Source of the DNA: Escherichia phage vB_Eco_OMNI12
Length of the DNA stretch: 64,000 bases
Sequence record: OL362041.1
Direction: 5' to 3' (one strand)
Every line of letters begins with the position of its first letter. The stretch's first letter is position 1. The position numbers and the translations under genes were made by a program. Shown here one piece after another: positions 5,713 to 10,804 of this stretch. The notes under the pieces were generated by a model. It searched no databases. It was not told the origin of the DNA and worked only from the letters and a program-made list of their open reading frames with translations.

Positions 5713-6186
5713 TCATTTGATTTGTTTAGCAGACCAAATGCGGTCTTTAATAATTTTTTGGATGTCTTCAACATACTCAAGAGAGTGAACATGTGGATTA
5801 TCTTTGAAACTATAAGCACGGGCTAACTTTTGGCCTTCGGTTTTGATTACTAAAAGCTCTTTAAGGATAGCTTCATATTTAGCGATAATTCCTTTAACGA
5901 TATTTTTTTCTTGTGCCGCTTTAGGATCTGCTTTAGGAGCAGGTTTACCCGAAGCCTTTGCAAAAGCAGCGCCAGTAGCAACTAAACTTTTCCAGGCCAT
6001 ACTAACTGCATTTCCCGTAAATCCTTCCGCTTTCATGTCGCGTGCAAACTGGAATCGCGATTCATCAGAAGCATCTTTATAGGAATATTTACCCGCGGCA
6101 ATGGCAGCTTTTGCAACAGCTTGAATTTCGGTGCTAGATGCTTCATTTAACACCGCTTCATTTAAAAATTGAGTATATGATTTCAT
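5713..6186 (-). CDS. Internal-protein-like capsid-packaged protein (N-terminal CTS-like MKSYTQFLNE)
   Basis: ORF track 5713..6363 runs through the terminator and tRNA-like region; true start taken at internal ATG with RBS AGGAAA. Confidence 0.6.
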   Translation of the reverse strand: MKSYTQFLNEAVLNEASSTEIQAVAKAAIAAGKYSYKDASDESRFQFARDMKAEGFTGNAVSMAWKSLVATGAAFAKASGKPAPKADPKAAQEKNIVKGIIAKYEAILKELLVIKTEGQKLARAYSFKDNPHVHSLEYVEDIQKIIKDRIWSAKQIK

Positions 6187-7365: not shown

Positions 7366-7437
7366 TGGCCCTGGGTGGAATTGAACCACCATCTGGCGAT
7401 TATGAGTCGCTTGCTTGAACCTTCCAGCTACAGGGCC
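7366..7437 (-). tRNA. tRNA-Ile (anticodon CAU, presumably lysidine-modified)
   Basis: Acceptor GGCCCUG, anticodon loop CUCAUAA, T-loop GGUUCAAUUCC. Confidence 0.8.
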
Positions 7438-8006: not shown

Positions 8007-8031
8007 ATAATAACACATAATTCTTAAAGCA
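8007..8031 (-). promoter_or_regulatory. Candidate middle promoter (MotA-box-like TGCTTTA, 12 nt, -10 TATTAT) upstream of the tRNA cluster
   Basis: Minus strand ATTTGCTTTAAGAATTATGTGTTATTAT ~70 nt upstream of tRNA-Gln. Confidence 0.3.
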
Positions 8032-8539
8032 AATCAATCATTTTAACGGTTGGCAAAACAATTTCTTTTTCAATATAAGCAAATTCGACACGTTCAACTA
8101 CACGCAAGAAATCGTAATCATAGTATTCAGAAGCATAGCCAAGAATATCAATAAGTCCTTGAGATATCTCATCGCCTTTCACAAAGAACAGGTCGAATAC
8201 GCGGGCTTCGTCTTCTTCAGATTTATCACCAAGGTCTACTTCGATACCAAAGACCTTTTTAATAAATTCCGGTTGGAGTTGGTCTGAGAACAGTCCTTCA
8301 ACCAGATATTCGTAGATAATAAGCGAGCAACGACCGAATGGTGTATTACCGCAATAACGTTCGGCTTTGGTGCTAGAATGACGGCTCTTAAATTTCTTCA
8401 AGAGATATTTAAACTGTTGGAGCTCATGCTCTTCCACTTCAAACAATGTTTTGGTTTTATAGTTGTCACCATCACTTTCATAGGTAGTGACATCAATTAC
8501 GTAGCCCTTAGGAATTGTACTGCCTAAACGAATATTCAT
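8024..8539 (-). CDS. Hypothetical protein
   Basis: 171 aa ORF, first of a co-oriented translationally coupled set. Confidence 0.6.
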   Translation of the reverse strand: MNIRLGSTIPKGYVIDVTTYESDGDNYKTKTLFEVEEHELQQFKYLLKKFKSRHSSTKAERYCGNTPFGRCSLIIYEYLVEGLFSDQLQPEFIKKVFGIEVDLGDKSEEDEARVFDLFFVKGDEISQGLIDILGYASEYYDYDFLRVVERVEFAYIEKEIVLPTVKMIDLL

Positions 8540-8543
8540 TTAA

Positions 8544-8834
8544 TCACCATACCATATTAATGTAAGTATACTCAATACATTCAAGATTTAAAGGATTCTT
8601 GAAAATATCATATTCAAGAGGGCCTTTTTCTGTTTCAATAAAGAAATCAAAGTTAACTGTGTTAAATTTACGGTCTTCCTTCACTAATTTAACTTGAGAA
8701 GATGAACGGTCAATGTAAACCTTTTCAACTTCAAAACATGTTAAAATGCCATAATCATCAATCAAAGCTTTAGCCGCGTCTTGATCATATTTATATCCAT
8801 TTTCAATGGATGATACTTTCGCATAAAGAATCAT
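8544..8834 (-). CDS. Hypothetical protein
   Basis: 96 aa ORF. Confidence 0.55.
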   Translation of the reverse strand: MILYAKVSSIENGYKYDQDAAKALIDDYGILTCFEVEKVYIDRSSSQVKLVKEDRKFNTVNFDFFIETEKGPLEYDIFKNPLNLECIEYTYINMVW

Positions 8835-8836
8835 TA

Positions 8837-9235
8837 TCAGCCTTCATCAACAATAGTGTGAGTATTAGCATTTACGATTTGCCACCAATCAAAGCGATTA
8901 GAATCCATCGGTTTGTTTTCATTTTCTTTGATAATGTCACGGAGTTCATCTTCAGAGAATGCTTTAGCGATTAAATCGGTATACCCACCACGTGGATAAT
9001 AATTATCACCTGCAAACAAAAGGAAATTTACCTTCCCGGAAGGAACATACGCTTCCTTAGGATACTTGTTTCCTGCGTGGTCAACCACTTCAATATAACG
9101 GTAAGGAATATCGGTTCTTTCAACCCATTGCCATGCCGCCGCAGGGGAATCGAAAGCATCTACACCTAAACGATTATCTTCATCTTTAGACGGATTATTT
9201 TCGTAATCCGCATATACATAATATTCAACGTTCAT
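8837..9235 (-). CDS. Hypothetical protein
   Basis: 132 aa ORF. Confidence 0.55.
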   Translation of the reverse strand: MNVEYYVYADYENNPSKDEDNRLGVDAFDSPAAAWQWVERTDIPYRYIEVVDHAGNKYPKEAYVPSGKVNFLLFAGDNYYPRGGYTDLIAKAFSEDELRDIIKENENKPMDSNRFDWWQIVNANTHTIVDEG

Positions 9236-9420
9236 TATTCACCTTTAGAAATTTTATCCATAACAATAGCAATTAAACCAATTAAAAATGCTACTACAAG
9301 TGAAAAAACATTTTCTGCCGTAGTCAATAATCCGCATATAAATCCAACAAACATTGAAAAACTGAAAGCGGAAGCAGAAATTGCAATAGCAACATTTCGA
9401 ATTAATTCACAACGTTTCAT
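9235..9420 (-). CDS. Small hydrophobic (two-TM) hypothetical protein
   Basis: 61 aa ORF, overlaps the start of the downstream ORF. Confidence 0.45.
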   Translation of the reverse strand: MKRCELIRNVAIAISASAFSFSMFVGFICGLLTTAENVFSLVVAFLIGLIAIVMDKISKGE

Positions 9421-9478
9421 TTTATTCTCCTCAGTAGTAGATAGGGTAATAGTATCACTACCCTATCTAAAAGTAAAC
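9421..9478 (-). promoter_or_regulatory. PeSL-like cassette copy 1: early promoter (-35 GTTTAC 9473-9478, -10 TACTAT 9449-9454) with inverted repeat GATAGGGTA / TACCCTATC
   Basis: Three near-identical ~60 bp elements share GTTTAC-N18-TACTATTACC with a hairpin spanning the -10 region. Confidence 0.55.
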
Positions 9479-9712
9479 TTATTTTTTACGAAAAATTGAT
9501 TTATTTTCTGCTGCCCATTTTTCAATAACTGCAGCAGGACCAGTAACAACAATTTTATCACCGTAATCTTCTGCGGCGAGTTGACCGAAATTATCTAATG
9601 CATCACGAAGAACTCCATGAGGCATTTCACCCATTTTATCTTTCTTGCCAGTGTAAATAAACTCAACTTTTACATCAGCAGTTTCAGCAATAAATTCTTG
9701 GTAAGTTTTCAT
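9479..9712 (-). CDS. Internal-protein-like small protein (N-terminal CTS MKTYQEFIAE)
   Basis: ORF track 9479..9724 (MEIKMKTYQEFIAE); start placed at second ATG with GGAAAT RBS. Confidence 0.6.
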   Translation of the reverse strand: MKTYQEFIAETADVKVEFIYTGKKDKMGEMPHGVLRDALDNFGQLAAEDYGDKIVVTGPAAVIEKWAAENKSIFRKK

Positions 9713-9724
9713 TTTGATTTCCAT

Positions 9725-10119: not shown

Positions 10120-10804
<685 letters not shown>

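Follow-up and report, generated by a model that had tools for sequence, protein, structure and literature searches.

The four open reading frames described here lie on the minus strand of a 64,000-nucleotide stretch of the Escherichia phage vB_Eco_OMNI12 genome (OL362041.1), which we refer to as the window. In their 5' to 3' order, they encode proteins of 61 aa (orf61, 9235..9420), 132 aa (orf132, 8837..9235), 96 aa (orf96, 8544..8834) and 171 aa (orf171, 8024..8539), and a tRNA-Gln gene starts 86 nt downstream of orf171. A preliminary description of the window had listed four co-oriented ORFs of these lengths, and they are present as stated. The tight packing reported there also stands, and the junctions, given as overlaps or 3-5 nt gaps, are in fact slightly tighter. 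The stop codon of orf61 and the start codon of orf132 overlap by 1 nt (TAATG), and the next two junctions have gaps of 2 nt and 4 nt, respectively. A Shine-Dalgarno-like purine run is found ahead of each start, within the preceding gene. This spacing suggests that the four ORFs are co-transcribed and translationally coupled in the window phage. All informative pairwise comparisons of the four ORFs gave a dN/dS of 0.00-0.32, which indicates purifying selection, and each ORF product matches a PHROG family over its entire length (E 6e-35 to 1e-63). Because of these two results and the early expression class of T4 Trna.2 and Trna.3 (see below), the four ORFs are real genes rather than chance frames. 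They are early phage genes, three of which are already annotated in T4, so that the original observation is sound but ordinary. The fourth, orf171, is by its sequence a member of a widespread uncharacterised phage family that has no T4 counterpart.

It is evident that orf61, orf132 and orf96 correspond to T4 trna.4, trna.3 and trna.2 (T4p135, T4p134 and T4p133; UniProt P13322, P13323 and P13324). The orf61 product is 100% identical over 61 aa to T4 Trna.4, and also to bas37_0259 of the BASEL phage Bas37 (KarlGJung, MZ501089). It matches PHROG 1692 (E 6e-35, residues 1-61 of 61), and its dN/dS against T4 is 0 at a dS of 0.19. As had been proposed, it is predicted to be a small two-TM membrane protein, with hydrophobic segments at about residues 9-32 and 37-55 and a GRAVY of 1.22. 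Trna.4 relatives were found in 790 phage records, 428 of them at least 99% identical; proteins at least 95% identical occur in 505 records, compared with 503 records with Tequatrovirus-level gp1. The orf132 product, encoded by an allele of trna.3, shares 64% identity with T4 Trna.3, 99.2% with bas37_0258 and 95.5% with JS98, and matches PHROG 1411 (E 1e-55, residues 4-132). The acidic protein encoded by orf96 is 94.5% identical to T4 Trna.2 and 96.6% to bas37_0257; it matches PHROG 2023 over its full length (E 2e-48), its gene occupies the position after trna.3, its homologues are tagged PF27001 in precomputed Pfam annotation, and its dN/dS is 0.07-0.20. Relatives of Trna.3 and Trna.2 are present in 763 and 803 phage records, respectively, and the host spectrum is alike for the records of all three proteins. 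The layout with trna.4 first after the promoter and directly upstream of trna.3 is common to T4, JS98 and Bas37. The 'trna.1/trna.2' ORFs of T2L (PMC2330249) are namesakes only, being different genes inside the tRNA cluster, and a relationship between Trna.2 and Trna.3 themselves was rejected (hhalign probability 0.2%).

These results do not agree with the earlier view of the four ORFs as a set of unknown genes in a hyperplastic interval, since three of them are annotated T4 genes with relatives in 763-803 records. The preliminary description had itself set homology to T4 housekeeping ORFs and invariant presence among relatives against its reading. Both were largely found for these three ORFs, except that they are not housekeeping genes, as transposon sequencing classifies them as non-essential. 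Plastic behaviour is confined to orf171 and the internal-protein cassettes.

Upstream of orf61 is a PeSL-type cassette (9421..9478, minus strand) with a putative -35 element GTTTAC, an 18-nt spacer and a putative -10 element TACTAT, followed by the orf61 Shine-Dalgarno sequence GAGGAG and ATG. An inverted repeat (GATAGGGTA/TACCCTATC) runs across the -10 element and would form a 9-bp stem over it (RNA fold dG -19.5 kcal/mol). PeSL (promoter-early stem-loop) cassettes have been described for phages of the T4 type (Arbiol et al. 2010, PMC2839356; Comeau et al. 2014, PMC4122927), and the sequence features upstream of orf61 have the PeSL layout of a putative promoter/attenuator. The cassette occurs in three copies, the two others being upstream of two internal-protein genes, and both the sequence and the alignment of the three copies bear out the PeSL-like promoter that had been proposed. 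In our promoter scan, the sister copies were listed at 9/12 matches to the sigma-70 consensus with an extended TG; the copy before orf61 is absent from the list because it has 8/12 matches and falls under the scan threshold.

Trna.3 can be divided into a variable N-domain (residues 1-65) and a conserved C-domain (residues 69-132), and the AF2 model of orf132 shows two small alpha/beta domains (pLDDT 85.7). The N-domain identity ranges from 25 to 100%, whereas that of the C-domain (~62 aa) ranges from 72 to 91%. All Trna.3 homologues carry the precomputed Pfam tag PF26894, and the C-domain motif FLLFAG-x2-YYPxGG ... DWWQIV is invariant at its motif columns in a 20-sequence alignment. Among the best 150 of 552 representative phage clusters, nearly all were matched through the C-domain alone, and in most related clusters this domain is a stand-alone protein of 56-100 aa. 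Its fusions (HTH, GemA, PilM and others) are singletons, with no recurrent partner. The window Trna.3 is 95.5% identical to the allele of the Dhakavirus JS98, yet the flanking trna.2 and trna.4 are 52% and 70% identical to those of JS98. Because of the unequal conservation of the two domains and the JS98-like allele between divergent flanks, we consider the N-domain as a candidate specificity module. It behaves like one that is exchanged among several genera, and it may set target specificity while the conserved C-domain would serve as the common scaffold. Both this exchangeable N-domain and the C-domain, as a very widespread stand-alone phage domain, offer handles for experiments.

The orf171 product matches PHROG 2290 (E 1e-63, residues 1-170 against profile positions 1-164 of 165), as do all 50 diverse relatives that we collected. 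The family has the motif GY-x-[IL]-x-[VI]-T-[ST]-W-E-N-D-[GA]-D-x-Y-x-T ... GN ... [FY]-x-R-V. In the 50-sequence PHROG 2290 alignment, E21, D23 and R146 are invariant, and all three are present in orf171. At two almost fixed positions of the WENDGD motif, W20 and N22, the window copy carries Y and S instead. With its sharply conserved acidic motif, this large family provides a third experimental handle. Relatives of orf171 are found in 546 phage records, including 141 from Klebsiella and 33 from Aeromonas, a host spectrum unlike that of trna.4-trna.3-trna.2. About half of the Tequatroviruses and many other large phages carry the gene, but no homologue exists in T4 or Bas37. Its dN/dS is 0.00-0.32. 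The predicted structure is poor (pLDDT 60.9), and PDB profile searches with deeper orf171 alignments gave no match. A similarity of the orf171 N-terminus to Trna.2 (blastp, 35% identity over 31 aa; hhalign probability 1%) and a relationship between PHROG 2290 and Trna.3 (hhalign probability 0.2%) were both rejected.

The 3' end of orf171 coincides with a putative middle promoter of the MotA type that would serve the tRNA genes (8007..8034, minus strand), identified by pattern match and consisting of the MotA box ATTTGCTTTA (8034-8025), a 12-nt spacer and the -10 element TATTAT (8012-8007). T4 middle promoters have the consensus MotA box (a/t)(a/t)(a/t)TGCTT(t/c)A, followed after 11-13 nt by a -10 element TAnnnT, and the pattern at 8034-8007 agrees with it. 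In T4, a middle promoter has been reported immediately before the tRNA cluster (PMC2330249, citing Broida and Abelson). The MotA box overlaps the last codons and the stop of orf171, and an identical box is retained in T4 and Bas37, where just ATG-CTT-TAA is left of orf171. Such a clean junction, which leaves the MotA box intact, together with the presence/absence polymorphism of the gene, could be explained by a selfish or mobile insertion without benefit to the phage, like a free-standing homing endonuclease. In fact, the junction region of Bas37 holds an HNH homing endonuclease, segB lies inside the tRNA cluster, and the phylogeny of the orf171 allele is decoupled from its neighbours, as it is 100% identical to that of NHEP36, whose Trna.3 is 45% identical. 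However, a Pfam search of orf171 and 49 relatives revealed no GIY-YIG, HNH or LAGLIDADG domain, the acidic pI of 4.7 sets the protein apart from DNA-binding nucleases, and the gene evolves under purifying selection and occurs widely in distant phage groups. We therefore regard a selfish insertion as extremely improbable.

The location of orf171 also raises the question of whether it, or perhaps the whole cassette, serves the adjoining phage tRNA genes by processing or stabilising the tRNAs or by shielding them from host anticodon nucleases. In Tequatrovirus, Dhakavirus, Jiaodavirus, Tegunavirus and 350-kb Klebsiella jumbo phages, homologues border tRNA arrays of the same orientation or lie within them, and the linkage to tRNAs is strong among T4-like and jumbo phages. 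Among the 75 IMG/VR loci of PHROG 2290, 21 have a co-oriented tRNA within 1 kb, at 29-48 nt in several distant contigs, whereas 42 lack any tRNA within 6 kb. When T4-like and jumbo genomes are set aside, a tRNA is found within 1 kb at 6 of 54 PHROG 2290 loci versus 3 of 64 loci of the Trna.3 C-domain, used as the control, so that the two families do not differ clearly; within 300 nt, the figures are 4 of 54 versus 0 of 64. Among the genes next to PHROG 2290 in distant phages are three for RNA ligases and one for a tRNA nucleotidyltransferase, but no family recurs among the 133 neighbours of 34 distant loci. Furthermore, the tRNA set is unchanged in T4 and Bas37, which lack orf171, and the searches found no nucleic-acid-binding or RNA-enzyme signature in this acidic protein. 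A tRNA-related role of orf171 is thus not supported beyond T4-like synteny, and we consider it quite improbable for orf171 or the cassette. The more specific idea that PHROG 2290 is a dedicated companion of phage tRNA arrays, protecting or maturing phage tRNAs against host tRNA-targeting defences, is in our view very improbable; if true, it would account for the siting at tRNA arrays in several T4-like genera, 350-kb jumbo phages and some unrelated contigs.

In T4, trna.2 and trna.3 belong to the class 'early-RNA_early-Protein' and the RNA of trna.4 is early (PMC9697503 supplements). Transposon insertions were recovered at 23/25, 39/40 and 16/17 TA sites of the three T4 genes, and at 25/25, 28/31 and 16/16 TA sites of their Bas37 orthologues, so that these genes are non-essential in both phages (bioRxiv 10.1101/2025.11.20.689424 supplements). 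Since the window and Bas37 proteins are 96.6-100% identical, the Bas37 results apply almost directly to the window. In three K-12-versus-clinical-isolate comparisons of the same preprint, the Bas37 orthologues show log2FC near 0 (adjusted p = 1), and they are not among the hits that its main text names (bioRxiv 10.1101/2025.11.20.689424). This null result in the three single-infection fitness comparisons is what would be expected if trna.4-trna.3-trna.2 formed a membrane module for superinfection exclusion or envelope remodelling, with Trna.4 as the anchor and Trna.3 and Trna.2 as partners, acting on incoming phages or the host envelope and not on intracellular defences. The almost invariant two-TM Trna.4, the TAATG overlap between trna.4 and trna.3, the co-occurrence of the three genes in order across genera and their early expression in T4 are consistent with such a module. 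However, searches of Pfam, PHROGs and PDB revealed no resemblance to Imm, Sp or any other known exclusion protein, and neither Trna.3 nor Trna.2 is predicted to have membrane or secretion features. We consider an exclusion module unlikely.

Searches for function agree with the earlier statement that the four ORFs carry no recognisable motif: Pfam, NCBIfam, PADLOC and PDB sequence searches were all empty, and the BFVD fold search returned uncharacterised phage proteins only. None of the four shows significant sequence or fold similarity to known defence-related or solved families, and we found no functional study on these genes or families in the literature. Trna.2, Trna.3 and Trna.4 are conserved T4 proteins that have proved dispensable under all conditions studied to date, and their identification here brings no new biology. 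As to the suggestion that the interval accumulates anti-defence genes, the island does contain proven counter-defence genes. Just upstream of the cassette are 57B, which is the counter-defence gene Acb1 (PMC9117128), and a 77-aa internal protein gene whose product shares 100% identity with the McrBC inhibitor Bas37_0260. However, the trna.2, trna.3 and trna.4 orthologues gave no counter-defence signal in the three transposon-screen comparisons considered above. Both upstream internal-protein genes encode the capsid-targeting leader of T-even internal proteins (MKTYQEF and MKTFKEF), whereas no leader of this kind (MKTYQEFIAE-like) is found at the N-terminus of any of the four ORFs.

Taken together, we lean towards the view that the cassette is probably an early polycistronic accessory set of small acidic binders and a two-TM protein, of use under certain conditions for host takeover or counter-defence, a reading with which the proven counter-defence genes just upstream agree. 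It would comprise two evolutionarily independent modules, because the host spectrum of orf171 differs and T4 and Bas37 have a clean junction without it. One module would be the conserved trna.4-trna.3-trna.2, encoding the 61-aa two-TM protein and two small acidic soluble proteins, and the other the optional PHROG 2290 gene, inserted between trna.2 and the tRNA middle promoter. Host RNA polymerase would initiate at the PeSL early promoter straight after infection, and the four ORFs would be translated serially from a single mRNA. Most likely, their products are binders without enzymatic activity, a reading that we favour over enzymes because the three soluble proteins have a pI of 4.4-4.7, the Pfam, NCBIfam, PADLOC and PDB searches were empty, and the Trna.3 C-domain can stand alone. 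They may bind host or membrane factors in takeover, or counter a host barrier missing from E. coli K-12, and would be dispensable in the laboratory. Several observations count against this explanation. The Bas37 orthologues had no effect in the three transposon-screen comparisons, the absence of enzyme signatures is only negative evidence, the invariant E21, D23 and R146 of the poorly modelled orf171 could have a catalytic role, and the strong conservation of Trna.4 and Trna.2 is atypical of arms-race genes.

The cassette can be compared with several known systems. T4 has the same gene order and strand, the same site between ipI-type cassettes and tRNA-Gln, tight junctions and an early promoter upstream, whereas the window differs by the strongly divergent Trna.3 N-domain and the extra 171-aa gene after trna.2. 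In Bas37, not only are bas37_0257, bas37_0258 and bas37_0259 96.6%, 99.2% and 100% identical to their window counterparts, but the upstream genes 57B and those of the 85-aa and 77-aa internal proteins are also 100% identical; unlike the window, Bas37 is without orf171 and has the HNH homing endonuclease where the window has tRNA-Gln. As in known PeSLs, the element before orf61 combines a sigma-70-like early promoter with a stem-loop over the -10 element, followed by a Shine-Dalgarno sequence and the start of the next gene, and copies of it recur where exchangeable genes meet their neighbours. Its hairpin differs from theirs in having neither a poly-G/poly-C tract nor a T-run (no terminator-like site was found), and it precedes only the first of the four ORFs, the other three being joined without a PeSL. 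Finally, the four ORFs resemble IPI, Bas37_0260 and Acb1/57B neither in sequence nor in fold and have no capsid-targeting leader, but they share with these proteins the same island, small size, non-essentiality in the laboratory and polymorphism between relatives.

On the minus strand of this Tequatrovirus (T4-like) segment, from high to low coordinates, lie gene 1 (dNMP kinase), 57A, 57B, two internal-protein cassettes, four ORFs and a tRNA array (Gln, Leu, Gly, Pro, Ser, Thr and a CAU-anticodon tRNA), followed by segB and tRNA-Arg. The four ORFs, named here by their length in amino acids, are orf61 (9235-9420), orf132 (8837-9235), orf96 (8544-8834) and orf171 (8024-8539), all on the minus strand and exactly where the preliminary description had placed them. 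Of the tight packing it described, a TAATG overlap and a 4-nt gap hold, but the other gap is 2 nt rather than 3-5 nt. A Shine-Dalgarno-like purine-rich run lies within the preceding gene ahead of each start, and we infer that the ORFs form a translationally coupled operon in this phage. ARAGORN calls the tRNA at 7366-7437 (minus) Met (anticodon CAT); the T4 record has tRNA-Ile at the same array position. Downstream of tRNA-Arg, a long ORF (5713-6186, minus) has an internal start, MKSYTQFLNEA, similar to the leader by which T-even internal proteins are targeted to the capsid, and may be another internal-protein cassette.

The interval between tRNA-Gln and ipI corresponds to trna.2, trna.3 and trna.4 (RB32 annotation and T4 record). 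Identity to T4 is 100% for orf61 (Trna.4), 94.5% for orf96 (Trna.2) and 64% for orf132 (Trna.3); orf171 lacks a T4 counterpart. In PMC2330249, the names "trna.1" and "trna.2" are given to a pair of ORFs within the T2L tRNA cluster rather than to the T4 trna.2 family, a trap for annotation transfer. The closest experimentally studied relative is the BASEL phage Bas37 (KarlGJung, MZ501089): 57B (10120-10578, minus), the two internal proteins and orf61 match bas37_0262, bas37_0261 and bas37_0260, and bas37_0259, respectively, at 100% identity; orf132 shares 99.2% identity with bas37_0258 and orf96 shares 96.6% with bas37_0257. At the orf171 site, T4 reads TAA-AT-ATG-CTT-TAA, in which a start codon runs straight into the final sense codon and stop of orf171. 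The sequence beyond this point matches that of the window, and Bas37 shares the junction. The bases kept at this orf171-less junction are part of a predicted MotA-type middle promoter (8034-8007, minus; ATTTGCTTTA, 12 nt, TATTAT) that overlaps the end of orf171, and a T4 middle promoter has been described immediately upstream of the tRNA cluster (PMC2330249). In place of tRNA-Gln, Bas37 has an HNH-type putative homing endonuclease gene (205 aa; locus L085, 3877-4494), directly downstream of the MotA-box junction where the window has orf171. This junction appears to be an insertion hot spot.

We searched 50,697 phage records by tblastn, with gp1 as a core-gene yardstick (1637 records matched, 503 at ≥90% identity, approximately the Tequatrovirus count). 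Trna.4 matched 790 records (505 at ≥95% identity), Trna.3 matched 763 and Trna.2 matched 803; judged against gp1, this triad is essentially universal in Tequatrovirus. It is also found in Mosigvirus, Dhakavirus and others, in constant gene order. In contrast, orf171 matched 546 records (253 at ≥60% identity) and is carried by about half of Tequatroviruses, with relatives of 26-42% identity in T4-like phages of Klebsiella, Aeromonas, Yersinia and Citrobacter and in 350-kb jumbo phages. The four ORFs therefore fall into two modules that are independent of each other, the conserved triad and orf171 as an optional addition. They are not a hyperplastic set; plasticity is confined to orf171 and the internal-protein cassettes. 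Gene-by-gene identities across relatives form a mosaic. Trna.3 of the window (8837-9235) shares 95.5% identity with its counterpart in the Dhakavirus JS98 (locus L004, 1812-2213; 90% at the DNA level), whereas identity to JS98 is only 52% for the neighbouring trna.2, 70% for trna.4 and ~51% for gp1, which points to the exchange of a single-gene allele between genera. Similarly, orf171 is 100% identical to the copy in phage NHEP36, and for Trna.3 the window and NHEP36 share only 45% identity.

All four ORFs are genuine genes, subject to purifying selection. Their dN/dS values range from 0.00 to 0.32 (pairwise against T4, phage 107, NHEP36, JS98 and two IMG/VR contigs; for orf61 against T4, dN = 0 and dS = 0.19), and every one of them has a full-length match to a single PHROG family (E = 6e-35 to 1e-63). 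T4 trna.2 and trna.3 are classed as "early-RNA_early-Protein", so their proteins have been detected by mass spectrometry, and trna.4, a small membrane protein without a protein class, has early RNA (PMC9697503 supplements); early expression is thus established in T4. The sequence ahead of orf61 contains GTTTAC-N18-TACTAT, and a 9-bp inverted repeat spans the -10 element (fold dG -19.5 kcal/mol). Copies of this cassette precede both internal-protein genes, and in one copy both stem arms have changed with pairing kept (GATGAGGTA/TACCTCATC). The earlier description of a PeSL-like promoter is confirmed, and the layout is the published promoter-early stem-loop architecture (PMC2839356, PMC4122927).

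As had been noted, the ORFs carry no recognisable motif: Pfam, NCBIfam and PADLOC gave no significant match to any of the four, and PDB sequence and profile searches gave none. Homologues carry the precomputed tags PF26894 (Trna.3) and PF27001 (Trna.2), models that postdate the Pfam copy searched and of which we found no mention in the literature. The three soluble proteins are acidic (pI 4.4-4.7). A Trna.3 profile search of 1.84 billion representatives returned 552 clusters; among the best 150, nearly all match the conserved C-domain only, mostly as stand-alone proteins of 56-100 aa. BFVD again yielded the stand-alone C-domain, including in Staphylococcus phages, all uncharacterised, and its fusion partners are singletons.

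The family of orf171, PHROG 2290, has the motif GY-x-[IL]-x-[VI]-T-[ST]-WEND[GA]D-x-Y-x-T, a central GN and a C-terminal [FY]-x-RV, with E21, D23 and R146 invariant among 50 diverse aligned members (130-185 aa). At residues 20-22 (8470-8482, minus), orf171 reads TTYESDGDNY against TTWENDGDNY in the family; it retains E21 and D23, and the nearly invariant W20 and N22 are replaced by Y and S. Its structure model is poor (pLDDT 60.9; shallow first alignment) and the fold matches are not meaningful. In several genera, as well as in jumbo phages, homologues adjoin or are embedded in tRNA arrays of the same orientation, and a tRNA lies within 1 kb in 21 of 75 IMG/VR loci and within 6 kb in 33, always on the same strand. 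This proximity is mostly carried by T4-like and related large genomes because of shared synteny. Among more distant loci, a tRNA lies within 1 kb in 6 of 54, versus 3 of 64 for stand-alone Trna.3 C-domain proteins as control, and within 300 nt in 4 of 54 versus 0 of 64. Neighbours in distant phages are mixed early and nucleotide-metabolism genes, among them three RNA ligases and one tRNA nucleotidyltransferase, with no recurrent partner found. A tRNA-related function of orf171 is a weak lead.

HIDEN-SEQ transposon sequencing (bioRxiv 10.1101/2025.11.20.689424) showed that the T4 triad and its Bas37 orthologues are non-essential on E. coli K-12, with insertions at 23/25, 39/40 and 16/17 TA sites in trna.2, trna.3 and trna.4, and at 25/25, 28/31 and 16/16 in bas37_0257, bas37_0258 and bas37_0259. 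In the three Bas37 K-12-versus-clinical-isolate comparisons examined, including CFE303, bas37_0257-0259 show log2 fold changes of -0.25 to +0.06 (adjusted P = 1), and the main text of that paper does not name them as conditionally essential. The 77-aa internal protein (9479-9712, minus), which starts with MKTYQEF at 9712 rather than at the upstream ATG at 9724, is found in 245 phage records ("ip6" in some annotations); its identical counterpart Bas37_0260 was shown by HIDEN-SEQ and knockout to inhibit the type IV restriction system McrBC (bioRxiv 10.1101/2025.11.20.689424). T4 57B is Acb1, the anti-CBASS nuclease (PMC9117128), so the distance between the four ORFs and a gene with a proven counter-defence role is ~700 nt. 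Together, these two genes bear out the suggestion of a counter-defence island. The stretch from 57B to the tRNA genes of Yersinia phage TG1 (Tegunavirus) contains a T4 30.3-like gene (locus L009, 795-1247); T4 30.3 is AdfN, an anti-DarTG factor (bioRxiv 10.1101/2025.11.20.689424), further evidence that the interval gathers counter-defence genes.

These results are best explained by an early polycistronic accessory cassette transcribed from the PeSL promoter. It would comprise the conserved triad, in which a membrane protein is accompanied by two soluble acidic ones, and an optional PHROG 2290 gene inserted directly ahead of the tRNA middle promoter. As to mode of action, we infer that the products most likely work by binding, either to targets in the host or its membrane while the phage takes over the cell or against barriers missing from laboratory strains. 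Specificity would be set by the variable N-domain of Trna.3. Nothing in the analysis makes the four-ORF cassette unusually surprising. It is already known as sequence, and the ORFs are not a new set but long-annotated T4 genes together with a catalogued PHROG family.
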